The translations under genes and the position numbers were made by a program. Positions 2,715 to 63,605 of a stretch of 64,000 bases of DNA are shown here, piece after piece; within the stretch, counting starts at the first letter, position 1; each line of letters begins with the position of its first letter. The DNA is from Protoeuglena noctilucae (Eukaryota): the NCBI GenBank assembly GCA_958009085.1, contig OY253670.1, positions 496,001 to 560,000 of the forward strand, in the 5' to 3' direction. Under the pieces are notes generated by a model. The model saw nothing but the letters and a program-made list of their open reading frames with translations. It ran no database searches and was not told where the DNA came from.

Positions 2715-5267
2715 TCATGGCCGGTGCGGGGCCTGCAGATCATCGAACCAATCGGCGGACCCCGGCACGAGGATGCGTGGTGTCCCGGCAGATGTGGGGG
2801 CGTGGGGTCCCGCGGTGCCCGGGGGCGGGCACGAGGTGGGGGCGAGGCCAGAGCCGAGGACGGTGCCGGAGAGCGCCGGAAGCTGCGCGACCAGGGCCGT
2901 GGGGTCCATTGGCGAGCTCGCATGGGGCGCATAGGCTCCGAGGCGCGTGGCAGGTGGGGGCGCTGGGACGGCGGTGTCGCTCGGGGCGGCCCTGCGTGCG
3001 CAAAGAGCGTTTTGGGGTGGTGGGAGGTGGCTATGGCCAGCTGCGGGGTGGCTACAAGGCGCGCCTGCCCTGCGTGGGGCCGGCTGGGCTAGCAAACGCG
3101 TCAAGTCGAGCGCAACATCGCACAACCACGACCGTCACTAGCGCTACCATTGGGCGTTCACGGCAGCAGGCGCGCGGACGCCGCCGCTTACCCTCCCACT
3201 CCCGCCCCCACTCCCACGCGCAGCGCTTGCAGGCCAGCGACCAGGGCGTCGTCCGTTGCCTGCGACGGCGGGGCGGGGATGGGGTGGTTGTGAGCGTTTG
3301 ACGGCGCTCCCGAGCCGATCCCTGGTTGTTTGTTGTCGAGGACAATTCACTAGAGATACTATGTCACGTAAGGACAGGAGACCAACGAGCATTGGTCTGC
3401 CCTGGCTGCGTGATATTCGTAACATGGCGTGCGTGACCGTGTCTCACCGCAGCGCGCGCTGCCTCGAGCATCCCGTGCGTCACCGCGTGCCATGCGCCAG
3501 AGTTGACGGCGGAGAGTGCCAGGGCAGGGACGTTGGTGACAGGCACAGGAGTGTGTAAAGCGGCGGGGACAGACAGCGATGGGTGCGTCCCTTGGGCCAG
3601 CGACTGCGGGGATGAGGGAGCACGCCGTGAGCTGAAGCGATGCCTGCGTCACGTATTTGGCATGTAATTGCACGGTATAGCAACAAGGTGCTCCTGTCGA
3701 GTGGCTGAGCACCCTGGCGTCCGCGCGTGGCTGACGCTGTGCTAGCACTGATAAGCAGCTTGCAGGCAGCTGCCACTCGCCTGCATCACCAGCATCTGCT
3801 GCGCCAGGTCGAGTCCTCCCTGGGGCGCCACGCCCGGGAAGTAGGCCGGGAATGCGACGTAGGGCTGCAGGGACCCTGGGATGCCTCCCGGCAGTGCGGG
3901 TACCGCCGTCAGTCCGCCCATGCCGACCAGGGTGCGTGGTCCGACCATCCCGGGCACCACCGCCGGGTGCAAGGGCGGCACAGGTACCCCTAGCGGTATG
4001 CTGAAGCCGCTGGGGGAGTGCGGAGCAGACCAGGGGAGGCGCGGGCGGCGGGCGGGCTGCGGGGCAGGGCGACGGAGTGGTAGGTGTGTGCGCGATGCAC
4101 GTGGTGCGGGCAGGCAACACGCACATACAGCTTCGCAGGGCAGCGGCATACAACTCGGTCTGGTCGCCTGCAGCCGCTGCTTGCAGCCCTGTGCAACGCA
4201 GCGCATTGTATGATGCCCATACGGCGGCAGGTGACATGGCGAGCATGCGACCGGCAGGCACGCGGCTTCAGCGCTCGCCTTGGGGGGCTTGGGCTGGTGT
4301 CGGTTGCGCGCAAAGCGCACGAGGAGAGGCTCGGCGCACCCGGGCGGCATGCTGCCATGGAGTGCGTCGCGTGCTGCTGTTGCGTCCGGCACAGACCCCA
4401 TTTGCACCATGGCGGTGGTGACCGAGGCCCCGCCGCCCGGGGGTGTGAGGATGCGCAGGTGCCGGACGGAGCCATAGGTCTGGAACAGGTCAGTGAGCTG
4501 CTTGTCGGACCATGAGGAGGGCACGCCCTTGACGTAGAGATTGTCGTTGGGTCCCGCGTCCGAGCCAGCGCCGTGCCGGTCCGCCTGGCGACCCCCGACA
4601 GGGTCGCATGCCGCCGCACGCACGCTCAGCTTCTTGCCGCTCACGACGCGGCCGTCCAGGACCCTCAGAGCCTCCGCGGCAGCCTGCGGCGAGGAGGGTG
4701 CCGGGTGCAGGTGAACGCTTGGGGAGTGCACAGATGGGTTTGGCTCATCTACATCGCACCATCGTCCACGCATACCACAACACGCCACATCACACCACAC
4801 CCCACCGCACACGCACCTCTGGGCTGTCCATGTTGACGAAGCCGTACCCCCGAGAGCGCCCTGTCCGCAGCTCCCTGGCAATCAGCGTGCTCCTGACTGT
4901 CCCGAAAGCCCCGAAGAGCTCTTGCAAAGTGGCTTCTGTCCATTGCGGCGGAATGGACCCCACGAACAGGTTGGCTTTGGCGGCAGAATCGTCGGGCATC
5001 TCGTCCAGGGTAGCCGCGGGGGCGGGTGGTCCTGCGGCCAGGGGGCAGGTTGAAGCGATGCGTGCCCGAATTCGGGAGCGTGATGCACGATACGCTGGGA
5101 GAGCAAAGAGAGAGCGGGTAGGCGACGCGGGCAGGGCTGGGCTCGCCTGATGGCCCTGGTTCTGGCCGTGGAGGAAGCACGTTCTGTCCCGGCGCTTCTC
5201 GGGCCTCTGCAGGCTCGCCGCCCAGCGCCCTCATCTGTCCGCCTTCACTCCCGCCCAACGCTGACAT
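2715..5267 (-). CDS. RNA-binding protein with two RRM domains (ELAV/Hu-like) and a low-complexity C-terminus
   Basis: RRM1 has NLFVGSIP...RSRGYGFVNM (4817-5031); RRM2 has NLYVKGVPSSW...TAMVQM...PLLVRFA. ATG at 5267 with a phase-compatible GC-AG intron at 5146-5032. The 3' exons down to 2715 are modelled on splice phase only and are less certain. Confidence 0.8.
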
Positions 5268-6425: not shown

Positions 6426-9400
6426 ATGTCAAACATCCTCAGCCCGAGGTGAGATAGGGCAGGGATGCGAGGCGGGGGGCCACGGCCATCGAGGAGTGTC
6501 CTGGACGTCACGGTTCTCCCAGCTGAAAAGGATTCATGCCCCGGCGAGGGGTCCGCGCGACGGGTGGTCACGGTTCATTCGCGGTTGCCTGATGATTCGG
6601 CAGGGGAAAGCCCTGGGTCGCCGCGCGATCCGCAGCATGCGACAGGGCTGGGTCCGTGGGGCCCTGCTGCTCCCGCAGCGCGCGAGAACCGCCCGGGCCA
6701 TCCGCGGTTGTTGCGAGAGAAATTTTCGTCCCTGTCGTGGGCGCCGTGACGCCAGTCCTGCCCCCGTGCGCGCAGGCACGTGTTTGGGCTCAAGGGGGAT
6801 GTCACGAGCAACGTTTTCCACCTGGACGACAACACAATCATTTACCCCGCGGGCAACTTCATCGTGGTGTACAGCATCGACTCCAAGACGCAGAGCCTCA
6901 TTCCGTGCTCCCCGGTGAGCGCCCCATTCAAGAAGCCCTGTCCGCGCGCCCTGGCCTGTCCATGTCATTGAGAAGCTTCCTCGCGACGCTCTTTGTATCG
7001 TCGAGGACCCTCCGGACCCGTCCCCGCCCCGCCCGGTCCGCAGGACTCGATCGGCATCACGGCGATGGCGCTGTCGCGCAGCCGCAAGTTCCTCGCCGTG
7101 GCGGAGCAGTCGGACAAGGCGATGATTTCGATTATCGAGCTCCAGGGTCACGCCAACAAGCGCCGCAGCAAGCCCCTCGTCACGTCCGAAGCGCAGTCGT
7201 CGCGCTATGTGTCGCTCGCATGGTCGCCCAACGACGACTGGTTGGTCGCGCAGGGCGCCGAGCCGGAGTGGAAGCTCGTGCTGTGGCGATCCCCGGCCCT
7301 CCAGAGGTCCCAGGCGAGGGCGCGCGAGGCGGAGGGCCGTGCGTAACGTAGCGGCACATGCGCGACCGCACACCGACATGCGGCCGGCCGATGTCACACC
7401 CTTTTTACCCCCCTCGCCCGGCCCCCCAGGTCATGTTTTCTGACAAGGTGCTGAGCAACAACCAGGGCGAGGCCTACCAGTGCCTGTTCCACCCCGTGAA
7501 CGGGGAGACTGTGACGGTAATCGGTGCGTCGGTCAACAGGGTGCTGCGCCTGGCCGACGAGCGCGAGGGGCTGCTCAAGCCCGCCAGCTACGGCATGGGC
7601 AAGGCCGCGGAGTCTCAGGCCAAGTCCCTCACCTGCCACTGCTGGCTGATCGACGGCGACATGAGCCGCATGCTGCTGGGGACGGAGCTGGGCGAGGTGT
7701 ACGTGCTGGACTACGACCGCAACTGGGAGCCCATCCGCGTGCTCAACTGCCCCGAGGGCGTGGGCGCCACGAGCATCGCGGCCTACAACAACGGGAAGGC
7801 GTTTGCGGTGGGCGGGACGCAGGGCACGGTGGCGTTCTTCGCGGCGCAGGATAACGAGAAGGAGCCGTATCGCATGGTGCGATCGGTGCAGATCAAGGGG
7901 GAGACCGGGTCGGTGCGGGCCATCAGCGTGTCGCCTTCGGAAGAGTCGCTCGTGCTGTCCACCTCCACCAACCAGCTCTGGGTGCTCGAGTTCAGCAACG
8001 CCGAGCTGGCTTCTAAAGCTGACGAGGCTCCCTCGAAGCTTTTAGTTGCTGCCTTCCACAGCGGGGAGGTCACGGGGCTGGACACGTGCGTGCGCAAGCC
8101 CCTCCTCGTTTCGTGCTCTGGCACCCCCGAGGACTCTTCCATCAAGATGTGGAACTATTTAGAGAGGACCTGCGAGCTGTCCGTGCGGTTCGAGGAACAG
8201 CCCCTGTGCGTGTCCCTCCACCCCACGGGATACGTGCTGCTGGCCGGGTTCACAGGTGAAGGGGTATGCTGAGCTGGGGTGGGCTGGGGTGATGATTGAG
8301 TGATTGTGCGAGGATGTTGACCGCGCAGTCTTGCATTTCCTCTTCCATCACTACTACCCACTGCTGCCCATCTTCCTCACCCCACCCGCACCCATTGCCC
8401 CACCCATCCCACTGCCCCTGCCCCTCCCTGTTCCCCAGACAAGCTCCGTTTAATGACGGTGCTGATGGACGATTTGAAGCCGGTGCGGGAGTACCCCGTG
8501 AAGGGATGCCGCGAGTGCCGCTTCTCCACGGGCGGCCAGTTCTTCGCAGCGACCGACCCGACCAACCACACGGTCAAGGTGTGGGCTACGTTCTCGGGAG
8601 AGCAGGTGGCCGAGCTGAGTCGCCACGCGAATAAGGTCTGGAGTATTCAGTGGAACGCGGAGGACACGAAGCTGGTCACGTGCTCGAGCGACGGGATCGT
8701 GATTGAGTGGGACATGCGGGGGTATCGCCCGTTGCGCCTGCACCAGACGCGCGGCATCTACTACACCTCGGCGGTGTTTGGGCTCGACGCCAAGACGCTC
8801 ATGGCCGCGGGGGGGGACAAGGGGATTAAGGAGCTGGGTGAGCGGCGGGGCAGGGCGGGTGGGGTTGCGAGGGGGGTGCTGGGGTGCGAGTGATGGTGTG
8901 GGTGGTGAGCAAGCAGGGATCAGGGCAGGGAGCAGGGGAGGGACGGAGGGGTGGAAATCGTGTGACCGTGTCACCCTAGTCATGCAACTTGCTTACCCTC
9001 ACCCTCACCCACCCACGCCATCATCCTCACCCACCCGTCTCATCCACCCCAAGACCCTTAACCCCTCACCCTCACCCCCAGGCGAGGACGGCGACGTCCT
9101 CCGCCACGCTTTCCAGGAGGAGGAGTTCTCTCAGATCGTCCTGGCAGATTCTGGCAAGATGGTGTTTGGTGCCACCGAGTCAGGCATCGTGAAGGCGCTC
9201 AAGCTGCCGCTCACGGGGGAGGTCGTTGCGCCGCCCATCAAGGCCCACGCCATCGTGGCGGGGAGCCAGAACTACTGGTGAGGCACATAGTCATGTAGCT
9301 GACTGTGTCAGTAATGCGGTGATGGGTCGGTGATGGCTCGTGAGAAGGGTCTGCTGTGGCGGGTAGCCAGAACTACTGGTGAGGCGAATACAGACATATA

Positions 9401-20589: not shown

Positions 20590-23500
20590 ATGGCGGCGGT
20601 CAAGCAGCTGAACCAGAACGCCGAGATCATCAACCGGGCGGGGTCGCTGTTCATGAACATCAACGCGGCCAAGGGCCTCCACGACGTGATGCGGACCAAC
20701 CTCGGTGAGTGCGCCGGAATCCCTACGTGGGGAGGGACGCTTGGCCGGCGCCCAAGCCCCAGATCTTGCGCCCCTTGCGCATGCTCCCAAATTTGGGCCG
20801 TCCTGTTCGGGCCGCTCCCGCCGCTCAGGGAGGCCCGCGCGATCGATGTCGCATTGTCTTCAATTACTTTTTAATCTAACAGTTCCTCGGCGACAGGCGG
20901 ATGGAGTATCGCGGCCTCCCGCGCGCTGCTCGGCGCACCGGCCCTGAGCAGGACGGTCCCGACCCCGCCGCGACGCCCCGAGGACTGCCATGGCCCTGCC
21001 TCGCCGCTGCTGGCCGGAGATGCTTGCGACGGATGTCCTCCTGTCGCTCCCGCGCCCGCAGGCCCCCGGGGCACGGTGAAGATGCTCGTGTCCGGCGCCG
21101 GGGACGTGAAGCTCACGAAGGTGACGCGATGGCCGGGGACGCACGCTCTGCCCTTGTCGCTGCAGTCACAGGAACGACCTAGCGACTAGTCGCTCGATCC
21201 CTGCCCCGCCCGCGCGCGCCTGACCCGCGCTGTGCTTTCAACAGCGCAAAACGCGGACCTTTGTCGCCCGCCGCAGGACGGCAACGTGCTCCTGCGGGAA
21301 ATGCAGATCCAGAACCCGACCGCGGTGATGATCGCGCGGACGGCGGTGGCCCAGGACGACGTGACGGGCGACGGCACGACGTCGACGGTGGTCTTCATCG
21401 GGGAGCTTATGAAGCAGGCGGAGCGGTGGCTGACGGAGGGCGTGCACCCACGCGTGCTGGTGAGCGACACCAAACGCATCGATTCCTTTGCCTGAACACC
21501 GGCACAGGCGCCAGGGGGGCACGCAACAGGCTGGCGCAAGGTGGGCAGCCACGCAGGCCGCGAGTCGCAAATAGTTTGACTCCTGTCGTTCTCCTTAGGT
21601 GGACGGCTTCGAGATCGCGAAGAAGGAGTCGCTGGGTTTCCTGGAGACGTTCAAGCAGGCCGCGGGCACCCGTGATCGTGACGTGCTGCACAGCGTGGCG
21701 CGCACGGCCCTCCGCACCAAGCTGGATGAGCGGCTGGCGGACCCCCTGGCCGACGCCGTCACCGACGCGGTGCTGTGCATCGCCCCGGAGGTGCGCTGCC
21801 GGACAGAGCTATTTGGAAGTCCCTCCCGCTGTCGCTGTCCTGCTCACACGGTTCCAGTCGACCCCACCTGCTCCCGCCCTCCGCACTCATCTCCCTTACT
21901 CGCTCACCCCCACCCCGCTCACCCCACCCCGCTCACCCCCACCCACTTAACCGCTCCCTTCCCCCTCCCCCAGGACCCGGACGTGAGCCCGGACCTGCAC
22001 ATGGTGGAGATCATGCACATGCGCCACAAGCTCGACTCGGACACGCGCCTGGTGCGGGGCCTGGTGATGGACCACGGCAGCCGCCACCCGGACATGCCCG
22101 CACGCGTCGACGACGCCTTCATCCTCACCTGCAACATCTCGCTCGAGTACGACAAGTCGGAAGTGAGTTACTCAATGCAACAGTTGCAGGTGCTGGGCTG
22201 CATGGGTCACCTGCAACATCTTGCTCGAGTACGAGAAGTCAGAGGGAGGCGCATATGCAAGATTTGACAATTAGTGTTAATATGCAGTGTTAGACAAGCA
22301 GGCACTGATAGTCACCTCCACGACGGCCATGCAAGGGGCGTTTGTAGACTGGACGCCCCCTCTCCCATCGCCACTCCCCCATTATCCCGTCGACCCCCTC
22401 ACCCCTCTACTATCTCCTCCCCAGGTCAACTCTGGCTTCTTCTACTCCTCCGCCGACCAGCGCGAGAAGCTGGCGGCCGCGGAGCGCAAGCTGGTCGACG
22501 ACAAGGTGGCCGCGATCGTGGCCCTCAAGCGGCAGGTGTGCACGGCAGGGCAGGGGTTCGTCCTCGTAAACCAGAAGGGCATCGATCCCGGGTCGCTCGA
22601 CGCCCTGGCCAAGGAGGGCATCCTGGCGCTGCGTCGCGCCAAGAAGCGGAACATGGAGAGGCTCACGCTCGCATGCGGGGGGTTCGAGGTGTCTGCGATT
22701 GAGGAGCTCAGCCCGGAGTGCCTGGGGTACGCGGGGGAGGTGTATGAGGTGAGGGGGGGTATGGGAGAGGGGTGTATGCGGGATGGGTGTGCGAGGGCCG
22801 GCGTGTGTGGGTCGAGGACAGTGTGGAGGTGTTTTCAGTCATGCATGTGTTTGGGTGGCAATCAAGTCAATGCCTGGGAGCAGTGGGCATGAGAGGACTT
22901 ACGACGCGGGGTAGGAGGTGGGCGGAGGGGTGTCACGATCGCCATGACACGTGCTTTGCCCGTTCCGCCCCGCAGCACGTCCTCGGGGAAGAGAAGTACA
23001 CGTTTGTGGAGAAGGTGCGCCACCCCCGGTCGTGCACGCTGCTCATCAAGGGCGCGAGCGACTACGTGATCGCCCAGATCAAGGACGCGGTGCGGGACGG
23101 CCTTCGTGCTGTGAAGAACGTGATGGACGACCGTGCTGTGGTCAAGGGGGCGGGGGCATTCGAGGTCGCATGCGCAGAGCACCTCCTCGTCAAGGCAAGT
23201 CGCAATTAAGATGCGGGAATGGTTTCTGGGGCAGCATGACTCCCAGAGTTGTCGGTTGCGCATGCATGCATGCGCTTGCGAGGCTCGAGCCAGCCATGGC
23301 GTGTGTCTGAATGCGCTCGTTTTGTCGCGGAGATCGCTGCGTCTCGTTCTTTTGCTCTGCGATCGTTCAGGTCTCTCATTCACTGCAATGCCCATTCCCT
23401 CGCTCGCAGGCCCGCGGGGTGGAGGGCAAGGCGCGGATCGGCGTGGAGGCGTTTGCAGCCGCGCTGCTGGGGATGACCGGGGTTTTGGCCCAGAACGCCG

Positions 23501-25935: not shown

Positions 25936-28290
25936 TCACTCCTCGACCAGCCCCGCGGCCGTCAGCACCTCCCTCGCGCCCGCCGCCCCCGCCCCGCCCT
26001 CGACCATTCGGTACGCCCCAGCTTCCCCCACCCGCACCACCGCCCCCAGCCCCGGCCCTCCCATCCGCAGCGCCACCCCGCCCCCGATATCCACCAGTGG
26101 CCCTGCACCCTCCCCACTTCTTGCATCCTCATACACCACTCGCAGTCCCGGCACCCCATCATTAGACAACGACAGGCCATCTACTGACGGCACTGACACC
26201 GGTGCACCATTCTTACTAGACAAAGGAACGCTCGATGCACCACCAGCTGCACCCCGCGCCCCCACTGTCGCAGGGGCACACGCCAATGGCCGGCCGTAAG
26301 CGTGCGCCAAATCCGACGCAAACCGACCGGACGGCATGAACCCCACTGCCTCCTGCGCCCCGTGGTCCGACCCGACTGCGCCGCCGCAGACAGCCCGGCT
26401 GAGGCGCGGCGGGGTGTCACCCTGGACTGCTGAACGCGAATGCTCCACCCCGCCCGCTGTTGCATCCCCACCCGTCGCCCCCGCCTCCCCATTGGTCCGC
26501 ACCGCCGCCTGCACTGCGCAGGGCGCTTCTAACAGCGTCTCGAGATGCGGGGCAACGGAGGCTGGGACTGCCATGTGCCTCGCCAGGGCAGTGGGAGTGC
26601 CAAAGGCGACGTGCAGCGGGTGCGTGGGTGGGAGGCCCGTCAGGCGCCTGCGGGGGGTGGGGAGAGAGGAAGTGGGGTAACTTAGCATGGGTTTGGATGA
26701 GGAAGCACATCAAGCAGTGGATAGAGAACGCAATTGGTGCGGTGGTGTACGGGACAGGTCACTGTCACAGCTGCGCCTCAGCTGAGCATGCAGCTCCCAA
26801 AATCTGCCGCCCCGTGTCCCTCACCGCATCGCTGAGACGGCTCTGTCGTCAGTCGCGTCGCAGCAAAGCCAGTGCCCCTGCCCTGGCCCCATTCCCGGCA
26901 CCGCCACCGCCTCCCCCGCCGAAAGCGCGCACACCCCCGCCGCCAGCGTCGCGCAGTACGCATGCTGCAGGTCTTCGCTGCTCGGCCCCGCATCCCCCGC
27001 GCCACCTGCCTCCCCCGCCCCGGCACCCCTTTCTGACACGGCGGCCTCTGACACGCCTTGCTCTGGCACGCGCATCAGGGCCGTGCGGGGCCGCCAGGCG
27101 AAGTCAAAAACCACCGAGAGGTGATCGGATGGGAACTGAGTCGACGGCAGGGCCACCTCCCGGGTCACAGCACGTTCGTCAGGCAGGGGTATCTCCCTGC
27201 GATGATGTGATGGAGAAGAGGGGGGTTGGATGGGGTGAGGAGGTGAGGAGGGAGTGGGGAGGGGTAAGGGGGTGAGGAGGGAGTGGGCTGGGTGAGGAGG
27301 TGAGGAGGGACTGGGCGGGGTAGGGGGGGAGGGCATGTGACATCAATGCACCGACAAGGGTGAGGTCCGCTCCCCGCCATGCCTCATGAATCAGTTCACC
27401 TGACTTCTTCCAATGTCGAGTTGTCCAGCCACACGTGGTCGAGCAGTCCCTTGTAACCGCGCACGTAGTTGGTCCAAGGGGCGCGCATGCCACCCGCAGC
27501 AAACTGCGAGTATAATAAGAGCGGAGACTGAGACACTCAATCTCAGCCAGGTCAGACCAAACAGTGACGACAACCCACTCGCAGCGAGGCATGGTATCCA
27601 GCCCTCTCATCTGGCGCATCACCCCTCACCTTCACCAGCAACCCTTACACCGCCCCTCGCTTCCACCCCACCCCATCTCTCACCAGCCGCACCACTACCC
27701 CTACCCTTCACCAACAACCCCTAAACCACCCATTCCATTCACCCCATCTCTCTCACCAGTCTCAGCGGTGCGTCCAGCGAAGGCGCCGCCCTCCACTCCA
27801 ACGGTTCTGGCACCCACGCCGCATCCGGCAGACCGAACCGCCACGGCTCTTCTCCCTCCTCTCCCGCATCCTCCGCGCCACTGTCACCCTCCCCCGCCCC
27901 CTGTGCCGCACTCGCGCTCCCACCCGGTGCGCCGCCCCCACCGCCGCCCCCGCCACCCCTTCCGCCACCGTCCCCCGGCGCAGCGTGACTGTCCTCCTCC
28001 CCACCGCCTCCCTTCCCCTCTCCCCAGGTGAAGTTGTCGATGTCTTTCCAATCCCAGTAGTCGCCACTCAGCCGGCCGTACTGCAGCATCTCTGGAATGC
28101 TCGGGAGGCCGTCATTGAGGTCAGAGTTGAAGTCGCCGCACTGAGGGGTGAGGGAGAGGTGGGGACGGGTGGGAAGGGTGAGAAGGGTGAGGGTGAGGGT
28201 GAGGGGGAGGGTGAGGGTGAGGGTGAGGGAGAGGGGGAGGGTGAGGGGGAGGGGGAGGGGGAGGGTGAGGGGGAGGGTGAGGAGGAGGGG

Positions 28291-28331
<41 letters not shown>

Positions 28332-28356
28332 GGAGGGTGAGGGTGAGGGTGAGGGG

Positions 28357-28387
<31 letters not shown>

Positions 28388-30996
28388 AGGAAAGAGAGGG
28401 AGGGTCAAATGGCAGTGCTCATGCAATCGCTGGCACCTCTTAACTCATTCCAACCCACTGACTCCCGCTTACTCACCCACACCGCCGCTGGCCCTCTCAG
28501 TGCACAGCATTGCCCCCACTCACTCCACCCACTCACCCACACCACCGCTGGCCTCTCCTGGCACTTCCCCTCCGCCACCGCCTCGTCTCTGGCGCGGCGA
28601 ATGAGGTCCGCCATGACATAGGCGTGGATGGAGCGGACGTGGGAGGCGCGCGGGTGGAAGAAGAGGTGGGTGTTGCCCAGGACAAGGGGGTGATCGGGAG
28701 CCGACACGGGGGCGAGCGTCAGCAGCTGTGAGGGGAAAAGGACAGGTGGGTGTTGGGGGTTTGCACAGAATGAGGGAAAGGGTGGGGCCGACACGGGGGC
28801 GAGGGTCAGCAGCTGCGGGTGCAGGGTATGGGCAAGGGCATGCGTATGCACAAGGACAGCGCTTTGAGGGTTTGGTGCGCCCTTAGTTGTCCCCCTCCTA
28901 AGCATGGCAGTCGAATCGCCATGCCAGTGGCAGTAGAACTACCAATCATGACAACCTTGGCCACCTCTCCTGCAGCACCGTCGTCGCTCTCCCCACCACC
29001 TCACCTGCAGCATGCCAGCACCCTCACCAACACCCTGACCATCCTCACCTGCAGCACCGTGGTCACTTTCTCCAACACCTTCCGTAAGTGGGGATACCGC
29101 TCCGCCAGCTCCCTCACAAAGGCGTACCTCTCATGGCCACCCCACGCGCAGTCGCCGTCCACCAAACCACGCATGGCGAACACCTGGCTGTCCACCAACG
29201 TGAACCTGCGATGAAGAGTTAATAGTAAAACGGCATGACTCGAGCTGTGTGAGAAAATTAGCTGTTTGACTTGTAAAGCACGTTAGTGAGGCGCAAGCCA
29301 TGCACGTCGCCTCTCCTCCCCATTGTGACTCTATCCGCCGCCGCCCACCCCCCATCCTAAGCACCCCAAGCAAACACATTCCAAATATCATTCAGCATCG
29401 CGTTTCGGGCACCTGCTGGTCCGCCAGAACGTCGCGCACCCCTCCGTCACCGGCCCCGCCTTTTTGGCGAATCGACCCTCGTATCCCCGCCCCCGCAGAA
29501 CCGGCTCATAAAGCGAGAAAGTCTTTTCGTCGCATTCCTGCAGAGCTACGACGTCGCAGTGGAATCCGAGGATCTCTTGAAGCACCAGCTGACGGCGGTA
29601 TCCGATCTGCGAACACGCAAAGCAGACAGCATCGTGACTATCTCATGACTATGACACAGTGTCCGACACAGGATTAGATACTGTGTCGCAGTTGCACATG
29701 AACATGTGTAAATCGAACCATCCCATCGCACAAGGCTCCCCAGCTCGCCCGCTTGCCTCGAGTGCAGCGGGGGCGCAGTACCCAAACAGCGTGGTCTTGG
29801 CGTAGGTGGAACTGGCGTACTGGTCCGCCAGAATGTTGTACGTCATCACGCGGAGGCCGGGGGACGCGAGCGGGGCGGGCGTGAGGGAGTGGCGGCCCTC
29901 GCCAGGCAGCCGTGCAGGCGCGGCGGCCACCACCCCAGCGTCCGCCCTCTGTAAAGCCCCGCTCACGATGCCGTCCGACGGCGTCGCGTGCACGAAGAGC
30001 CGGCAACCCGCATCCGCGGCGTCGGGCACGTACTCGCTCCCGCGCCCCACCTCGCGCCATGCCACGGCGGGTGCGGCGGCTTTCGACCCGTTGGGCGATG
30101 GCGACGGGGAGGGCGGCGCGCGGGACTGCAGGTGCCAGGTGATGGTCGTGAAACGCTCGTCCGCAAACGCGAGGCGGGCGACGGCGGCGACGGGGACGCC
30201 GGGGATCGGGGAGGCACCGCCCGCTGTGGTCGTGAGCTCCGTGACGGTGGGCGGGTCGCGCGTGATTTGCGCCACGCGCCCGGCGATGACGAGGGAGCGC
30301 GGCGGACGCCACGCCACGTCGTTCGTCGTCGAGGGATCCACCGTCGCAAAGCCCTCTCTGCGGGCGGGGGGGCAAACCTCGCGCGTTGTGCCGTAACATT
30401 GTGCGATGTGCTGACGGGGTGACTGCGACTCCGCGGCCCAGCGCAGAGCCGCCATGCGATGCTGCAAATGAGCATTTTCGTCACCTGAGCTCGACCTTGG
30501 GCAGCGGGCCCTCCTGGCGGCCCTTATTCCCTTTCTTGCCCTTCTTCCATGGCGTGGGTGGGGCCTTGCCCGGCGGACAGAACTCCGGGATCTTCGCGGC
30601 CTCGATGCTGATGCGCTGCAGCACTCTGCCGACCTCCTCATTCCTGGGGCGTACGAATCCCCGGAAACCCATCGGCCCGCCGAAGTAAAGGAAGATCGTA
30701 ATGCTGGGCGTCCCCGGCAGCGCGCGCGCGACGACCCTCAGCTCGTCGTCAGCGGGCGCATCGGAGCCCGACTCCAATATCGAGCGCATCCGGCCCTGTG
30801 GCTCGGCCATCGGGCGCCGGTGCGCGGCGCTGCGCGTGTTGGGGGCCAGCTGGGGCTGTGGCGCTCCGCGCGGGGCCCTTGAGGCGCGAGCGGGGTGGGA
30901 AGATGTCGGGAATTTCGATGAAGTGGAGGATGACCGAACAAGCGCCACCGACATGCCTCGCGCGATGCCAAGCAAGGCGACGCAGCCCCGGCGCAT
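25936..30996 (-). CDS. PDE12: 2',5'-phosphodiesterase 12 (CCR4/EEP-family deadenylase) with a fused C-terminal YrdC/Sua5-like domain
   Basis: RVMTYNILADQYA; YCAPAALE|IGYRRQL..LQECD; NTHLFFHP; CGDFN; TNYVRGYKGLLDYVW; FPSDH. The frame continues into a YrdC-like sequence via intron 26824-26648. Intron 29756-29607 is GC-AG. Start codon approximate. Confidence 0.88.
28185..28390. repeat. (GAGGGT/GAGGGG)n hexamer microsatellite in a PDE12 intron
   Basis: About 200 bp of tandem GAGGGT with GAGGGG variants. It reads (CCCTCA)n on the transcribed strand, just upstream of the acceptor at 28142. Confidence 0.95.
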
Positions 30997-38416: not shown

Positions 38417-40474
38417 ATGCCTGCCCTCAGGGCGCGCCGGTGCCGTTGTTGCTCTCGGAGCTGTCGCGCGGCAGCGGACCCCTGCGCGTGCCGATGGGTT
38501 GTCTGGAATATCGTGCGTGGTGCGGAGACGGCGCGGAGTGACTTCGCGCCCGCAGGGCCACAGGAAGGACTGGGGCGTGGATGTGGAGGAGGAGCGGGAG
38601 AATTTCAAGAAACTGCTGAAGCAGCGCGGGTGCGGCGCACGCCGATGTCGCTCATGTCCGCGAGCAGTCCCTCTGCGGGGATGCGCGCCCCAACTTCCCC
38701 CCCGGGGAGGCGCGCCTTCCTGCGCAAGGTCCCCGCGGTCGTCGCCCCTCCTCGCAGGCTGGCGATTCCTCCGGAGATCGTCATCAAGGGCGACGTCGAC
38801 TGCACCGTCGATCGGTTCCTCAGGCAAGCGAGCGGCGGCGCGGCGGGGCGGGAAACGCCCACGCCGGGCGTCTGCTAACGCCGGCGGAGTTAGGGAGCGC
38901 CCTCCGCTTGCCCATGGGGGCCGCGCCGTTCATCGCAGGGCGAGGAAGTATGACTTGGACGCGTCGTTCAACATGCTGGAGGCGTCGGTGGGCTGGCGGC
39001 GGCAGGAGGACATCAACAAGCAGGTCTCGCACCCGCTCAGCGCGCAGAAGATGCTCGTCATCCGCAAGTGTCGCCCGTCCTCGTACGTGGGCTTCGACAA
39101 GTTAGGCCGCCCCGTGGTGAGGGCCCGGGACGCGCCGGGCCTGCGATTCCCGCCGGCGACATCTGTCGTGACATGCCGCCCCGCCCTCTCCTCTTTCCCC
39201 AGTACGTGGACCGCGTGGGGAAGCTGGACCAGCCCGCCATGGAGGCAGCGGGCGTGACGGAGGACGACTACATCAAGTACCACATCCTGGAGATGGAGTT
39301 CTTCATGCGGTGGCTGCTGCCCACCGCGTCGGAGCGGTCGGGCCGCACCGTCTTTACGTCCATGAACGTGGTAGACGTCACGGGCCTGCAGCTGACCATG
39401 TTCACCAACAAGGTGCGCACCATCTTCCGTAGCATGGCCAAGATCGATTCGGACAACTACCCCGAGACCATGGGCAACACGTTCATCTTCGGCGCCGGCG
39501 TCGTGTTCCAGACCATCTGGAAAATCCTCTCGGTGTTCGTGGACCCCTACACGCGCTCCAAGGTGACGGCCACGGAATGCACCCAAGTGTTGCATGGTGC
39601 ATGGAGTTGGTGCGGGCGACTTGCCGACGCGCGTCGCCTGCGAGCACGCCCTTGGCCTGCCCTCCTCATGCCCGGGCACCGCCGCGCGCAGATCCGGGTT
39701 CTGGGTTCCGGGAAGGAGGCCATCGGCCAGCTGCACCAGTTCATCCCCAGCGATGTCCTCCCGACGTTCTTGGGCGGCCGCGTGGACTTTGAGGTGCAGC
39801 GGCGGCTGTGGGCGCAGAAGTTCGACCAGTGGCTCGAGTCCGAGGTGAGAGGCCGTCTTTGTGCGCAGCCTGGGGTGGGCTGGGAGACAGTGGTGCCTGC
39901 AGTCTGGGTGGCGGCGTGACGGGTGGTGGGAGAGGCCTGTCCGCAGGCGCGCAAGGCGGGGCACACGTGGATGGACGCGGCGACGGCGCAGCACATGAAG
40001 GACTTCTACGAGGGCAAGAGCCTGGCGCTGCCGCCCGAGGCGCGCCGCGCGGGGGGCCCCATTATGCGCCGGCGTCGGTCCATGGCCCGGATGGGCGGGG
40101 AGATCGCCTACTTCGACGACGACATGGGGGCGTCGGACGTCATCCGGTGAGTTTCGCGGGTCTCCTCGGTCTGCTTACGCCATGGCTGGCTGGGTCGGTG
40201 GGCGCGAGCGCTGCGGCGCATGTCGTCACGCCCCGCCGCCCGTCTTGGCCTGCCCAGGGAGACGCGCAAGATGGGGATCCTGTGGCAGATCGCGTACGTC
40301 TTCCTGTGGCTGCTGACGCTGGTGGGGCTGTACAGCAAGAAGCGGTTGCGGCGCGCAATGGGCGTGGAGGAGTACCTGCTGGGGAGCGACCTCGACGACG
40401 TGCCGCACATCGAGGTGTCGCGGTCCAGGACCGGATCGAATCAGCAGCGCCGGGGCTGCTGCACGGTCATGTGA
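38417..40474 (+). CDS. SEC14/CRAL-TRIO lipid transfer protein with a C-terminal transmembrane helix
   Basis: RFLR|ARKYD across the GC-AG intron 38824-38938; GFDKLGRPV|YVDRVG; IDSDNYPETMG; LPTFLGG; terminal TM segment ILWQIAYVFLWLLTLVGLY. Start uncertain. Confidence 0.9.
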
Positions 40475-50286: not shown

Positions 50287-52263
50287 ATGGAGCGCCAGCC
50301 TAGCCGGGCCAGCCTGGGGTCGCACCGTTCGGGCAAGTCGCAGGCGTCCAAGTACCGCGTGGTCGCCGCGACGTCCATGGTGGACGAATCGCTGTTCGGG
50401 AACAAGAAGAGCCCGAATGGGAAGGCCGAGGGTGCGCCGCGGGACGCGGCTCCCAAGAGCGCCAAGGCGGGGGGGCTGAGGTCCACGGCGACGCTGGGGG
50501 CGAGCCTGAAGGAGGGCGCCGTGACGGTGACCAAGCACGACTTGGAACGGATGCTCAACAAGTCATCTATTCTGACTGCGGAGGAGGCGCAGGCACTGCG
50601 CTTCGAGCGGGAGGCCCGCCGGGAGCAGGAGCGCAAGGCGGCGAACGAGCGCAAGGTGCGCCCCGGCCCTTTCGCGCCGCGCGCGCACGCCTCCGGGCCC
50701 CCCGCGCACTCCAGCCTTTCTTCCCGCTGTCCAGGCTCGCATGCTGGAGCTCGAGGCGCGTGCGCGTGAGCTGGAGCCCCCGACCGAGTCGGAGATGCTC
50801 AAGGAGGAGGAGGACGAGACGACGCTGGCGCGGACGCGGTTCCTGCTGGACGAGGAGCGCGACGAGGTCAAGGGCATGAACCGCATGATGCTCTACGCCA
50901 AGTGCGTCACGATCCGGGACGCCCAGGTGGCCGAGAAGCGCAGCATTCAGCGCGAGACGGAGGAGGAGGAGCGCCGCATGGACGTGGCCATGGAGATCGA
51001 CCGGGTGAAGGCGCTGGAGGCGTACGAGGAGCGGGAGCGGCGACGGGCGGAGGAGCAACGCAAGGGCGCGGCCATCATCGTGGACCAGATCCACGAGCGG
51101 GAGCAGGAGCGCATCCGGGAGGAGGAGCTGCGGGACTTGGAGCGCCAGCAGCTCATGCGGGAGATCGAGCGGCTGAAGCGCGAGGTGAGGGCCGCGGCGT
51201 GAGAGCCGGTCGTCCGGCCGCGGGGACCGTCGGGCCGCAGCCGGCGCGTACGGAGAAGATGCGGCATGGGAACTCAGGCGCGTGGTTGTCGTGCTCGCAG
51301 GACGAGGCGTCGCGCGAGGCGGCCAAGCTCAAGGCGCGGCAGCTGATGGAGGAGGTGATGGAGACGAACCAGAGGCAGCTGGAGATGAAGCGGATGGCCA
51401 AGCAGGAGGAGGTGGAGGAGGACATGCGGATCGCCGAGTACATCCGGCAAAGGGACCTGCGGGAGCAGGCGCTGGCGGAGGAGAAGGAGAGGATTGCGAA
51501 GGAGAAGGAGCTCGAGATCGCGCGGCTCCGGGCGCAGCAGGAGCGGGCGAATGACCGGCAGGCGGAGATCGACGAGCTGCGGGCGCGGCGGTACCAGGAG
51601 CAGAGCGAGCGCGAGTGGCGGGACAAGGAGCGCCGGGAGCAGGAGCGGCGCGAGCGGATGCAGGACGAGCTGTCGCGGGCCAGGTGAGGAGCAGGGGGGC
51701 TGGGAACGGGCCCTGACGGTGCAACGCGGTTGCTAATATGCGCTTCCCCCGCTCGTGCTCGGCAGGGAGTACCAGATGGCCTCCAAGGTGCAGTCGATGG
51801 CGGAGATGGCTCGCGCGGAGAAGGAGGACTTCGAGCGCGTGCTGCGGGTCAACATGCAACGGCAGCGGGAGGAGGCGGAGGCGCACGAGGCGGCCGAGAC
51901 CATCCGGCGCCGGCACCAGCAGGATCTGCTCGCTCAGATCCACGAGGCGGAGGAGAAGCGCATCAAGCAGCGCCAGGAACACCTGGAGGAGGGCCGCAAG
52001 GTGCGCAACTGGCGCAGTGGTCTCTGTCGGGCAACTGCAAACATGGATGGCTTTTTGCCGGAGCGAATGCTTGGGAGCGTTGCTGGGTGAGCACGTAACG
52101 CGGCGTTCCCGGGTTCCACGCGCAGATCCGCGAGAGGCTGCAGCGCGAGCGCGTGCACCTCGAGATGGTCAAGGAGCGCAAGCTGAGAGAGCTGCGGGCC
52201 GCGGGGGTGCCGGAGAAGTACGTGGCGGAGTTGGTGAAGATGAAGGTGTCCACGGGGGCATGA
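50287..52263 (+). CDS. CFAP45: Cilia/flagella-associated protein 45 (CCDC19/FAP45), 5 exons
   Basis: VDESLFG; DEVKGMNRMMLYAKCVTIRDAQ; RLRAQQERANDRQAEIDELRARRYQE; GVPEKY. Confidence 0.92.
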
Positions 52264-52447: not shown

Positions 52448-55107
52448 TCAAGCTTCAAACTTTTTGAATACCACTGCCGAGTTGTGTCCCCCGAACCCGA
52501 ACGAGTTGGAGAGGGCCGCACGGGGCTCGAGCTTCTCCTTCTTGCTCCCAATGAGGAAGTTGAGGTCCAGGTCGTCCTCGGGATTCTGCAGAAACGCCGG
52601 TCGACGCTCGTTGATAGTAACGATACTGGCTCGCCTCGTCGCCGGCACCACGGGACAAGTGAGACAGCCGTGCGAGAGCCGCACGCCACGCGAGGGCATG
52701 TCCACCGTGTCTCACCTCCAGGTTGGCGTTCGGGTGCACCCACCCTGTGGCGAGCGACTGCACGCACGCCACCGCCTCCACGGCGCCCGCCGCCCCCAGC
52801 AGGTGCCCCGTGAACCCCTTGGTCGAGTTGATCTTCCCCTTCCACCCCGCCAGCCCCGACATGATGGCCCTGCGACGCGAACAGGCACACAGTCAGCCGA
52901 GCCCTGCAAGGCTTCAGACCAGAGGAAGCGAAGGGTGCAATGCTCCTTAGATGATGTCCCCGAAGTACCCTTCCCGACTCACCTGTACTCCGCCATGTCC
53001 CCCGCGGGCGTGGACGTGCCGTGGGCATTGACGTAGTCGATATCTTCTGGCCGCATGCGGGCGTCCGCCAGGGCACGCTGGATGCACAGAGACACGCCCT
53101 TGCCCTCCGGGTGCGGCTCCGTCAGGTGGTGCGCGTCGCAGCTGAAGGCCGCGCCCGCAACCTCGCAGAGGATGGGCGCACCTCGTGCCTGGGGAACACA
53201 GAGGACCGGGGACAACGTCGCACTCTCCTCACAAACACCCATGGGGATCTCGGCGCGGCGAGACCTGAAAGGCTAGTTAGACTACCAGGACCTGTCTCAC
53301 GTCAGGACTGCTAGCCAGTCCCTAGCCTCCGACAGAGCACGGCACACCGGCGGGTCAGCCGCCCGTCAGCGCTGCCCTCTGCATGCATGGCACAGGGCGG
53401 CGCGCCCTTCACCTGCGCGTGCTCCAGGCTCTCCAGCACCAGCACCCCCGCCCCCTCGCCCATCACGAACCCGTCGCGCCCCTTGTCCCAAGGCCGAGAT
53501 GCGGCCGCCGGGTCGTCGTTGCGCTGGGAGAGCGCCTTGCAGGCGATGAAGCCCTGGATGCCCAGGGGCAGGACGGACGCCTCGGCGCCGCCCGCGAGCA
53601 TCACGTCCGCGTCCCCACGCCGGATGTGGTCCATCGCCAGCTGCGGGCCACGGGAGGCCAGGCGGGGATGGTGAGCTGTGTGCCGCAGCGATTGCGGTTG
53701 CGGCCGGGGCCTTGCGCGGCCTGAACAGAATGTCCTACGGAGCACCCAGCCGTCGTCAGGCGCTGCTGGTAATCTGTCTGTCACCTTGATGCAGTAGTTG
53801 CCGGTGGCGCACGCCGTGTTGGCGGGGTAGTTGGGGCCCATGAAGTTGAGCTCCATGGCGAGCATCGCGCCGGGCATGTTGGTGATGGCGAAGGGGATGC
53901 AGAAAGGGTTCATTCGCCGGAAGGACTGCGTCACCAGGCTCTGCACCGCCGTGCCGAACGCCTGCGAGGGAAGCCGATGCGTCGAGGGTGACGGACGGCG
54001 TGTGCGATGGGTCCAGAGGAGGCAACAGGGCGCTTTCTGACGGATGCGGGTGGCGCGAGGTGACTCACGTCATAGCCGCCGAGGGCGGAACCTATGAGAA
54101 TGCCTGCCCGGAACTTGTCCAGCTTCTTGAACGCCTCCCCCGTTTCGTCGAGGCCCGCATGGCGCAGCGCAAGCTTGCCGGCGACGACACCAAACTGTGA
54201 GGGATGCGGAGGCGTCATTGCGCGGGACGGCCAGCGCCCCGGCGGGCGGCCTCGAGCACGGGTCGGGACACCCACCTTGATCACGGGGTCCACGCGCTTG
54301 ACGAACTTCTTCTGCATGAGTCCGTCCAGCGCCAGCTGCGTCACCGCCTCATCGTCCACCTCCGCGGCAATCCGGGTCGGGAGCTCCGACGCGTCGAACT
54401 TGCTGATCGCCCGCACCCCCGACCGCCCCTCCAGGAGGTGCCCGTAGAACTCCGCGGGGTCGTTGCCCAGGGGAGACACGAGCCCGAGCCCAGTCACGAC
54501 AACCCTGCGCGGCGGGGGGCGGGGGCGTCGCGGGGGAGCGTGTTGCGCCTGCCAGATGCTCTGAGGCCGCACGGAGGGCCCTTGCCTACGCCTCCCGTCC
54601 TCCTCGCTCGTCACTGCGCAGGCCACATCCCTGCACACCCGCGCCTGCGGCGGGGTCCTCACGCTCCGGAGACTCCCTGCGGGCGACGGACGGGCAGGGA
54701 GCAGCAGCTCGGTCGTGGGCGCGTCCTCCGGCGAGGCCCCACGCCGCAACGACCCCGTTTCCAGGCGCGATGCGATGTTATCGACGAGGAGCCACCGGAG
54801 ATGCGGGCGGGAGCGGTGCCCCGACGAAGCGCGGGCCCGCAAGACCCCGAGGGAGGGGCCAGAGGCCTGAGACGCGCCCGCGGAGGGCCAGCGGAGTCGG
54901 AATCGTGCAGCTCGCGAGCGAATATGCCGCGGATGAGATCGAACGCGGGATCGCCGGGGGATCGCTCGCGCCCGGCCCGAGTAAGATCGCCCGGCGCGCC
55001 TGCCCCGCAGACGCCGCGGGGGACCCGCGCCGGCGGCCCGCACCTGAGATGGCTGCCGGAAAGGACGAAGGGAGGGGCTGGCCGGTGCGAATACCCACGA
55101 CGCTCAT
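52448..55107 (-). CDS. KAS2: Plastid 3-ketoacyl-ACP synthase II (FabF/KASII)
   Basis: [28 protein letters not shown] (catalytic Cys); [36 protein letters not shown]. Transit-peptide exon from ATG 55107; the 5' exon layout is tentative. Confidence 0.93.
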
Positions 55108-60800: not shown

Positions 60801-63605
60801 TCGTCCTCCGGAGAGTACGACTCCCCGAGCACCCGCACCGCCTCTCCCGGCCGTAGTGCCCCGCTGATGACGCGGCCAAAGGCGTCGAAACCGGGGTCGT
60901 TCAGCCGGGGGACCATCTTGGCCACGGCCACGACCAGCGGCCCCCGGGCGTTGCACAGCGACATGTTCTGCGCCATGTCGGACTTCTGGTCACCCGTCCA
61001 CGTCCGCTGGACCTTGTGGGCTGTCCCGAGCCTCGCGCTGGGGACATGCTCCGTCAGCATGTCCACCAGTCCCGTCGAGTCGCCGAACACGGCCATGAAG
61101 GCGTCCTTGAGCAGCGGCTTGCTCGACTTGTGCAGCTGCGGCGGGCGGGCGGGCATGGCAGGCATGGCAATCGCTTGACGTCGCCACGCACGGCTGCCCC
61201 TGCATAACACGCAACCCTCCCCAGCCACCCGGCAGCGGGCGGATCCAGCGACCAGCGCGTGTCGATCTTTCCCCCAGCGCGCACACATGCCCCGGCCGCT
61301 GCCCCTCAGGTCACACCTGCGAGGGCCGCAGCGTGGCGCCAAACTCGGCCAGCACCCGCCGGATGGTGTCGATCTCCTCCCCCACGCACGCCGACACGAT
61401 CTTGTAGATGGGCTCGAGGCAGAACTCCACGAACGACCGGTTGCGCGTGCCGACGGGCTTGTTGGAAAACTTGCGGGTCGAGGGGTCGAAGTACCGGTCT
61501 CCCCAGAGCTTGCGGCCGAAGTCGACGTAGTCACGCCGGACGTGCCCGTTGCCCACGGGCTGCGGCAGGTACATCTTGGCGAAGGAGAAGACGGTGAAGG
61601 AAAAAGAGAAGAAGCCTGGAGGAGGCAGGGAGGGGTGCGAGTGGATTGAAAGGATGGGCGTCGGGCCAGGCGGGGCGAGGCTGGCGAGGTGACGATGGGG
61701 TGGGTGGATAGGAGGCTTGGGAAGACACCATTGGTGCTATTCAACAACGCCAGACATAACTCGACGGAGCCATGGTGCGTAAACCCGCCGCTGCGACACC
61801 CACAGCACACCTTCACTGCACTCCTTGATGCCCGCAGCCCTCTGCTACGCCCTCACCTGAGCTGAAGCACACGGACCCCTCAGCCGGGTCGACTCGCTTG
61901 ACGCGGGTGGACCCAGCGGCGTAGGCGCCGATGTACCCGTTGACCTCCTCGATAATGTGCCGCAGCTTGAAATACGCATCGGACGGTGGCAGCTTGAGCT
62001 CCGTCACGAGGCGGTCCAGCTTGGCGATCATCAGCACGATCGGGAGGTCCTCCTGGCAGGCCTGCCGCACAGCACGCTCCGTCCCCATCATGACCTGCGC
62101 AGGGCCGAGGTCCACTTGGTTCGTGAGATGCGAGATGCAGGCCGAGTGAGCCCAGTTACGGAATCGTACATGCAAGAGTGTACATGTTGATTGCGAACAC
62201 CCGCGCTCGCCCGCGCAGCCCCTGCTCGCCATACCCGCCACGCCCACTGCACCGCTTCGCAAATGCGCCGTTGCCGGCACAGTCGTTGCAGCCCTCACCC
62301 CCTCTGCGGCATCGACCACCAGCATGACGCCGTCCGCCAGCCGCATCGCAACCGCGACCTCGTCGTTGAAGTTGGCGTGGCCCGGGGTGTCGATCATATT
62401 GCAGAGGAACGACTTGCCCTGGCTGTCCTGCAGGCACGGGTGCGGCACAGGCACTGCACGTCAGAACATTAACTATCCAACAGGCCTGGCGAACCGTGGG
62501 ACACATGGTACGCTGAGATGGTGACACACGGATCCCAAACTCGTCAGCGCAACCATCAGCGGCACGTGGGCAGGTGCACACGGGCCCGCACCGCCCGTTT
62601 TGGGTCTCACACCTGGAGGACCAGGGACATTGGCGTCATCTTGATCGAGATGCCACGGCTGACTTCGTCGAGTCGCGTGTCGGTGTACTTCAGCATGCGA
62701 CCGTCGTCCCGGGTCTCGAATCCCGTCTGGTGCGTCTGCTGCACCACCATGTCCATCACCGCGGTCTTGCCGTGGTGCAGGTGCCCCACCACCGCCACGT
62801 TCCGCACCAGCTCTGCGCGCGGAGGCAACAGGTCCTGTCAGAGCGCGTACCGGCGGAGCGGGTGCGCTTTAAAGCGACGGAGGGGCCGGCGACTCGCCCG
62901 CGTTGCTCATGAGCCCCGTGAGGAACTCCGCCGAGTACGCCGTCTCCGGCAGCTCCTTCTCGACAATCTCGTGCTTCTTCTCCGTCACCGGCGCGATGAT
63001 CGGCTTCTCCAGCGGCTGCGCGTCCTCCTCCATCACCAGCGTCTCTGCGCACGCCGCAGCAAGGCCCGTGAGGCCGCCTGCGCCCCTCGCGGCGCACCAC
63101 CTCAACAAACAAATCATACGCGTTGCGGGGAGACCAAGACCCGCGCGGGCGCGCCTGTCTCGGGTCCGTAAACCTCCTCGGCGCTGGGGTAGTACTTCTT
63201 GTCCTCGTGGAGGACGATGTCGGTGCCTGGCTCCAGCCCCGGCCAATCCTGATCCATCATCTCGTCCTCCTGGTCGAGCTTGCCACGATCATCGACTTCG
63301 TCGCGCTCCCCATGGGCGCCGGACGGCCCCTGCGCGAAGAAGCGGCCGGCAACGAGATGCCGGCGAAGGCGCGCTCCGCACACCTCCAGCACGCGCTGAT
63401 GCAACGTTTATGTGATGCATCGCAAGTGAAGGACGACTGGAGCAGCGCATGTCAGCGAGAGCACAACCCACGCCCCTCCCCGCACAGACAGCCATCAGGC
63501 CCCGCCTCGCACCTCTCCCCCCGGCCTCCCATCCTCGCTGCTCTCCGACCCGCTGAGTTCCGGGCCAATGTAATTCCCGAACTCATCATAGAGGTCCTCG
63601 TCCAT
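57816..63605 (-). CDS. EFTUD2: U5 snRNP 116-kDa GTPase EFTUD2/SNU114, 16 exons
   Basis: [96 protein letters not shown]. Exons: 63605-63513, 63329-63155, 63044-62898, 62812-62613, 62427-62299, 62094-61857, 61615-61317, 61135-60779, 60663-60465, 60242-60172, 59946-59818, 59595-59456, 59217-58942, 58684-58547, 58374-58230, 58058-57816. Confidence 0.97.

Follow-up and report, generated by a model that had tools for sequence, protein, structure and literature searches.

Evidence for a YrdC-derived, catalytically degenerate domain fused to a PDE12-type nuclease in Protoeuglena noctilucae

What follows the nuclease domain in a PDE12-like gene of Protoeuglena noctilucae (Eukaryota), in which the reading frame runs on beyond the point where human PDE12 ends? 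The gene lies on the minus strand of a 64,000-nucleotide stretch of contig OY253670.1 (assembly GCA_958009085.1, positions 496,001 to 560,000), which we analysed as a whole and refer to as the window, and a first-pass annotation had taken it for a PDE12 deadenylase fused to a degenerate Sua5/TsaC domain of the YrdC family. PDE12 (2',5'-phosphodiesterase 12, the mitochondrial poly(A)-specific exoribonuclease) has been reported to clear mitochondrial mRNAs of poly(A) and mitochondrial tRNAs of spurious tails (PMC3177208, PMC5544427, PMC11729904). Our results support an architecture in which a PDE12-type nuclease is followed by a YrdC-derived domain that is catalytically dead.

From the window sequence and RNA contigs we assembled a gene model of nine exons on the minus strand (25936-30954), which together make up 3183 nt and encode 1060 amino acids in a single open frame. 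Exons 1-5 lie at 30954-30485, 30357-29757, 29606-29413, 29205-29049 and 28725-28537, and exons 6-9 at 28140-27757, 27503-27400, 27196-26825 and 26647-25936. Of the eight introns, five are bridged by RNA contigs (29206-29412, 28726-29048, 27504-27756, 27197-27399 and 26648-26824). Intron 29607-29756 (minus strand) appears to have a GC donor (GCAAGC) and an AG acceptor, and its RNA backing is a single 12-letter loose end, in a contig of run X3, whose letters agree with the beginning of the following exon. The start codon and introns 30358-30484 and 28141-28536 rest on prediction. Inside the latter intron, 28175-28398 is taken up by a long hexamer microsatellite (CCCTCA-like on the minus strand), at which the contigs of every run break.

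The fusion hinges on what happens downstream of FPSDH, the last catalytic motif of the EEP domain (27121-27135, minus strand), which we located by translation and by alignment with the PDE12 chains. As the first-pass annotation had read it, the stop-to-stop frame that carries this motif stays open past it, in this case until a TGA at 26821-26823, and that TGA falls within a GT...AG intron of 177 nt running from 26824 to 26648 (minus strand), which interrupts the YrdC-like domain. The split codon CG/G keeps the last exon in phase, and this exon is then open until the stop codon TGA at 25936-25938. The removal of the intron is seen in RNA: a joint from 26646/7 to 26824/5, skipping 177 bases, is present in one contig of run X2 (74 letters on the shorter side) and one contig of run X3 (76 letters), that is, in two metatranscriptomes among the three RNA runs. 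X2 and X3 belong to the same study and therefore count as one independent source for the splice, and neither X1 nor X5, a run of unrecorded kind, yielded a contig with a joint over this intron. A further X3 joint, from 25993 to 26901, has non-canonical ends (CC..CA) and a shorter side of 21 letters; we rejected it as an artefact. Moreover, the YrdC-like match described below begins with 41 residues that share one exon and one open frame with FPSDH, so that the fusion rests on more than the intron.

The nuclease part bears out the first-pass assignment to PDE12. In the PDB, exon 2 (200 aa) matched only human PDE12 chains (4zkf, 4z2b and 4z0v; best E 1.7e-19, query residues 30-200 against chain residues 9-180), and the chain residues matched take in the N-terminal domain of PDE12. 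In the model, this PDE12-like N-terminal domain spans amino acids 186-321 (29865-30272, minus strand), and Pfam PF21171 also touched exon 2 alone, at E 7e-4 and 20 bits, under its cut-off of 27. The EEP nuclease domain follows at amino acids 325-736 across exons 2-8 (27088-29855, minus strand), as delimited by PF03372, PDB matches and motifs; exon 3 gave PF03372 at E 0.001, and its PDB matches were the CCR4-type EEP structures CNOT6L, PDE12 and nocturnin. All five EEP motifs (YNILA, ALQEC, GNTHL, CGDFNS and PSDH) are present, which we take to carry the catalytic roles of the family (Asn, Glu, His, Asp-Asn and Asp-His, respectively). The algal protein, known from its sequence, thus shares with human PDE12 the order of an N-terminal domain and then EEP, and the EEP ends of the two align residue for residue: the final 34 EEP residues align with the very end of the human chains, and exactly there the algal tail starts. 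It differs by this added tail of 324 residues and by a Gly/Glu/Ala-rich insert of 59 residues within the EEP domain (model amino acids 577-635; 27847-28023, minus strand), which has no counterpart in the PDE12 chains among the aligned exons. At the other end, the first 50 residues (30805-30954, minus strand) hold 7 Arg, 1 Lys and neither Asp nor Glu (pI 12), and such a basic, acid-free, transit-peptide-like N-terminus suggests that the protein may be imported into an organelle. Judged from its sequence, the gene probably encodes a PDE12-type EEP exoribonuclease, and the nuclease would most likely trim oligo(A) or poly(A) from the 3' ends of organellar RNA, as PDE12 does.

The C-terminal extension comprises the 324 residues beyond the EEP end. 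To score it as the spliced product, the two tail exons were joined in a script and compared with a profile of 53 bacterial YrdC-family domains, to which E. coli K-12 contributed 3 and a set of 61 Pseudomonadota genomes the other 50. The spliced tail reached 30.2 bits (E 1.2e-11 for a single target), with one domain of 27.9 bits in which tail residues 83-169 are aligned to positions 12-95 of the 197 in the profile, straight across the splice junction at 123/124. No shuffle among 6000 attained 30.2 bits (3000 global, maximum 8.5; 3000 window-wise, maximum 10.6), and the reversed tail gave no score with this profile. Among the 988 stop-to-stop open reading frames (ORFs) of the window, the best was the ORF of exon 8, with 11.3 bits against the family profile and 17.9 bits against a HypF-type profile, while the last-exon ORF alone scored 3.6 bits against the family profile; the best unrelated ORFs reached 6.9 bits (family) and 9.6 bits (HypF-type). 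That only the spliced product attains 30 bits is as expected if the intron sits inside a real domain. The 9.6 bits belong to an ORF at 23193-23366 (minus strand), whose E-value over all 988 ORFs is 0.03 and whose family-profile score is 6.0 bits; it is probably a chance hit, and we found no second YrdC-like ORF among the 988 ORFs of the window.

Alignment of the family with the tail by hhalign gave the same picture, with 90% probability and P 1.6e-6 over columns 22-147 of 212, and it bridged a Gly/Ala-rich insert of 55 residues to reach a GVRxP...PL motif. A profile of the C-terminal half only scored 4.7 bits via this one motif, a value that 13 of the 3000 global shuffles and 8 of the 3000 local ones attained. 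Beyond column 147, where the hhalign match stops, the C-terminal strands are unmatched. Thus, at the level of sequence, the first two thirds of a YrdC-family domain are recognisable in the tail. The first-pass annotation had read six YrdC motifs in their proper order; the first five, namely the helix, strand and CDA region, the KxR position with the PL strand, LLEAP for LLPGP, VGFMP for GVRxP, and GRPLAC for PL..TS, hold beyond chance in the profile and hhalign comparisons, and the sixth, GPLVD for STxVD, received no statistical support.

Along the tail, all on the minus strand, these elements are arranged as follows. An acidic Gly/Ala-rich linker without family match (amino acids 737-782; 26950-27087) lies in the same exon as FPSDH and leads to the first part of the YrdC-like domain at the end of exon 8 (26825-26949), which contains the helix, the strand and the CDA region and corresponds to tail residues 83-123 of the profile match. 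Behind the intron, the second part (26512-26647; tail residues 124-169, up to profile position 95) holds the KxR position, which reads TGL, the PL strand, helices and LLEAP. The 55-residue insert inside the domain (26347-26511), treated as an insertion by hhalign and without a match of its own, separates it from the middle motif (26278-26346), in which GVRxP, a helix and PL are followed by APAT in place of TSAN; this motif, found by hhalign and the C-half profile, is colinear with the N-terminal half.

Single-exon searches pointed faintly in the same direction. The NCBIfam model hypF (TIGR00143) gave a hit at E 0.12 that pairs its positions 193-228 (of 741) with residues 83-121 of the exon-8 piece, and these model positions are, we presume, the start of the YrdC-like part of HypF. 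In a search with the protein language model ESM, the three best matches of the last exon were YrdC/PF01300 clusters (0.88, 0.87 and 0.87), and all ten of the ten best family-bearing matches shared the family or its clan, which we use as a lead only. When the three E. coli paralogues (YciO, TsaC and the HypF domain) were aligned with the last exon by hhalign, the GVRxP...PL motif was aligned (P 0.054). Against the PDB the last exon gave no match, and its single-sequence AlphaFold model was of low confidence (mean predicted local distance difference test, pLDDT, 36.5). Several other hits were set aside. ESM matches of the 53-residue N-terminal tail piece to SH3 and unnamed clusters come from a piece too short to be meaningful; a cytochrome c555 trimer at E 1.3e-5 was reached solely by summing three 8-bit repeats and is noise, as is RPL22 at E 5.6; and FANCE and herpes LMP1 were sub-threshold noise in the Pfam scan of the tail exons. 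The same holds for a Pfam BTK motif of 14 residues (26839-26880, minus strand; residues 106-119 of the exon-8 piece), which scored 17.3 bits with a cut-off of 24 and is attributed to chance. This BTK hit sits on an H-W-x-C-C stretch that is the CDA region of the YrdC-like match.

To which branch of the YrdC superfamily does the tail belong? Using subfamily profiles, all of them bacterial, with the YciO set drawn from Pseudomonadota only, we obtained 20.5 bits for the HypF type (n=17), 12.2 for the Sua5 type (n=15), 2.1 for the YciO type (n=16) and -1.1 for the TsaC type (n=5), as compared with the 30.2 bits of the pooled profile (n=53). Since the pooled profile scores highest, the tail is best described as diverged within the superfamily, without clear affiliation to any subfamily. 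The assignment to Sua5/TsaC made at first pass therefore stands as regards a YrdC-family segment and is too narrow as regards the label.

The catalytic signature of the threonylcarbamoyl-AMP synthases is gone from the tail. KxR...SxN has been described as the signature that defines the threonylcarbamoyladenosine (t6A) enzymes (PMC3223725) and as the 'KRSN tetrad' (PMC4615747). The four positions read T, L, P and T in the tail, so that the signature is absent at four of four; the changes of K to T and R to L are read from the alignment, and those of S to P and N to T from an ungapped extension after GRPLAC. The PTDT loop has become PGMG plus a three-residue insert, and the equivalents in HypF-type domains, KG.GG and TSGN, are lost as well. 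The alignments thus uphold the earlier observation that PTDT, KxR and SxN are all replaced. Because the signature reads T, L, P, T and the PTDT loop is replaced, synthesis of an acyl-adenylate is not expected, and from the alignment together with the published signature we conclude that the tail domain should be unable to make either threonylcarbamoyl-AMP or carbamoyl-adenylate.

Comparison with characterised relatives sharpens this description. With TsaC/YrdC and Sua5 (PF01300) the tail shares, in the correct order, the N-terminal helix, the first strand, CDA, the PL strand, the equivalent of LLPGP and GVRxP...PL; it differs from both in reading T.L...P.T for KxR...SxN and PGMG plus three residues for PTDT and in its low Sua5-type and TsaC-type scores, and from Sua5 also in that Pfam finds no Sua5 C-terminal domain on the tail exons. 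The carbamoyltransferases HypF, TobZ and NodU represent the HypF type, which gives the best subfamily score and the touch of the hypF model; the tail, however, has none of their acylphosphatase, zinc-finger or Kae1-like domains according to Pfam, and it keeps neither the conserved Lys nor TSGN. Beyond sub-threshold noise, no other Pfam family was found on the tail exons. YciO, a TsaC paralogue outside t6A synthesis, is encoded by a gene reported to co-localise with rnm, the gene for the 5'-3' exonuclease RNase AM, and is described as carrying on its surface a conserved basic patch for which RNA binding is predicted (bioRxiv 10.1101/2024.07.01.601547); a YciO-type gene, At3g01920, is reported from plants (PMC3223725). 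The algal tail resembles YciO as a YrdC fold that is devoid of t6A function and tied to an RNA exonuclease, but it scores only 2.1 bits with the YciO-type profile, it is acidic, not basic (Lys plus Arg 5.9%, with a YciO median of 11.65%), and its partner nuclease differs in fold and polarity and is joined to it by fusion instead of being encoded by a neighbouring gene.

The composition of the tail bears on its possible function. It carries a net charge of -10, contains a single lysine in 324 residues and consists to 35.8% of Gly and Ala, and the Lys plus Arg content of its YrdC-like part, 5.9%, lies below the subfamily medians of 8.2-16.1% among the 53 bacterial domains. Proteins of COG0009 are reported to bind double-stranded RNA (PMC3223725, citing Teplova 2000), and the first-pass annotation had suggested that the tail serves as a module for binding RNA or tRNA. 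The acidity of the tail and its scarcity of basic residues mildly disfavour this idea, which we regard as doubtful.

What, then, is the tail for? We lean, with some reserve, towards the reading that this nuclear gene of a GC-rich green alga encodes a PDE12-type 3' exoribonuclease with a basic presequence, intact EEP motifs and a non-catalytic, accessory tail of YrdC origin, and we rank such an accessory role first and a functionless relic second. An older gene fusion would have put a YrdC-fold (PF01300-type) domain, intron included, behind the nuclease, and the remnant would now be a non-catalytic appendage that aids substrate choice or partner docking. A bolder version, in which the dead YrdC fold is a working substrate selector that tethers an organellar deadenylase to the 3' ends of tRNA or rRNA or to a partner in t6A synthesis or RNA maturation, seems to us speculative and rather unlikely. 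Several observations weigh against our favoured reading. Pfam PF01300 has no match at E up to 10 in either tail exon alone, and NCBIfam finds no family match in the last exon alone; these blanks do not count against the YrdC-like domain as such, because the intron splits it. Searches with the last exon through 1.84 billion representatives, 5.8 billion clusters and metagenome contigs (two scans) brought up no homologue save its own ORF call, so that neither conservation of the tail nor selection on it can be demonstrated. The 55-residue insert and further Gly/Ala-rich stretches interrupt the YrdC-like domain, the last 113 residues (25939-26277, minus strand) give no family signal with hhalign or the C-half profile, and both the net charge and the content of basic residues are a poor fit for a nucleic-acid binder. 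Third-position GC is 71.7% in the last exon, with one block of 150 nt at 48%, compared with 73-89% in the other exons, and a contig of run X1 (26731-27075) is unspliced across the donor of intron 26648-26824. The long Gly/Ala-rich inserts, the high Gly and Ala content, the weaker third-position GC signal, the lack of homologues in representatives, clusters or metagenome contigs, the loss of all four signature residues, the unrecognisable C-terminal third and the low pLDDT would also fit a decaying relic, in which the nuclease gene acquired a YrdC/YciO-type gene by fusion and the added part, having lost its function, drifts on as a mostly disordered tail that is tolerated but has no role. We regard this as a serious though less probable rival: the frame is still open over 324 codons, the intron is still spliced in phase, and the N-terminal half retains a single-domain score of 27.9 bits, which is above expectation after long neutral drift, although no rate can be estimated without relatives.

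The remaining explanations fare worse. If the gene made two products, the tail would lie outside the nuclease protein, either because the message usually retains the intron and stops at TGA 26821 or because the last exon is a separate transcript. Such an arrangement would agree with the X1 contig, which indicates that unspliced RNA or contaminating DNA is also present and which could be pre-mRNA, a case of intron retention with the protein ending at that TGA, or DNA in the library; it would agree, too, with the fact that no single contig covers FPSDH through the last exon. We nevertheless consider this case, which the first-pass annotation had named as the refuting one, improbable: X2 and X3 yield spliced contigs, FPSDH and the first 41 YrdC-like residues stand in one exon and one frame, and 30.2 bits with the family profile are attained by the spliced product only, the separate ORFs yielding 11.3 and 3.6 bits. 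The view that the tail is a lineage-specific low-complexity sequence resembling YrdC by chance, with no YrdC ancestry, is close to refuted. Its strongly biased composition and the lack of a curated-model match on single exons would suit that view, but none of the 6000 composition-matched shuffles and none of the 986 other ORFs of the window came near 30.2 bits, and the weak matches are colinear at the expected places (hypF 193-228, hhalign with the E. coli trio, and the ESM features). It is just as improbable that the tail is still an enzyme, adenylating a new substrate or using catalytic residues that have moved elsewhere in the YrdC fold. Divergent domains of this fold are indeed described with a different chemistry, in HypF and TobZ (PMC4615747), and YciO is reported to retain residual activity (bioRxiv 10.1101/2024.07.01.601547); yet the four KRSN positions and the PTDT loop are all replaced here, as are the HypF-type equivalents of KG.GG and TSGN, and Pfam finds no Kae1-like partner domain on the tail exons.

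The surroundings of the gene are in keeping with a nuclear location, as the window is GC-rich, intron-rich and eukaryotic and the neighbours are ordinary nuclear genes. They include ORFs with RRM (3745-4881, minus), WD40 (7352-8269, plus), Cpn60/TCP1 (22281-22889, plus), CRAL/TRIO (38954-39916, plus), TPH (50770-51684, plus), ketoacyl-synthase (53934-55103, minus) and EF-Tu-type GTPase (61816-62460, minus) domains.

A literature search, to which most subscription journals were out of reach, turned up no description of an EEP-YrdC fusion, and PF01300 and PF03372 were not found together in any paper of the literature searched; four papers name YrdC as well as PDE12, and their titles mark them as reviews or unrelated studies. 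To our knowledge, how PDE12 chooses its substrates is not settled, and we know of no function assigned to the YrdC-fold proteins outside t6A synthesis, notably YciO, whose tie to an RNA exonuclease consists solely of gene neighbourhood. If it proves to be conserved and functional, a natural PDE12-YrdC fusion would offer a direct handle on both questions, the substrate choice of PDE12 and the role of YciO-like proteins, and it would clearly exemplify how an ancient enzyme fold can be put to new use as a module without catalysis. Should the tail be only a decaying relic, it would show that gene fusions in GC-rich algal genomes leave behind domain fossils that exon-by-exon searches miss. Were it a substrate selector, the protein would be a eukaryotic, fused counterpart of the unexplained bacterial link between YciO and RNase AM, and the first case in which a YrdC fold is physically joined to an RNA exonuclease.

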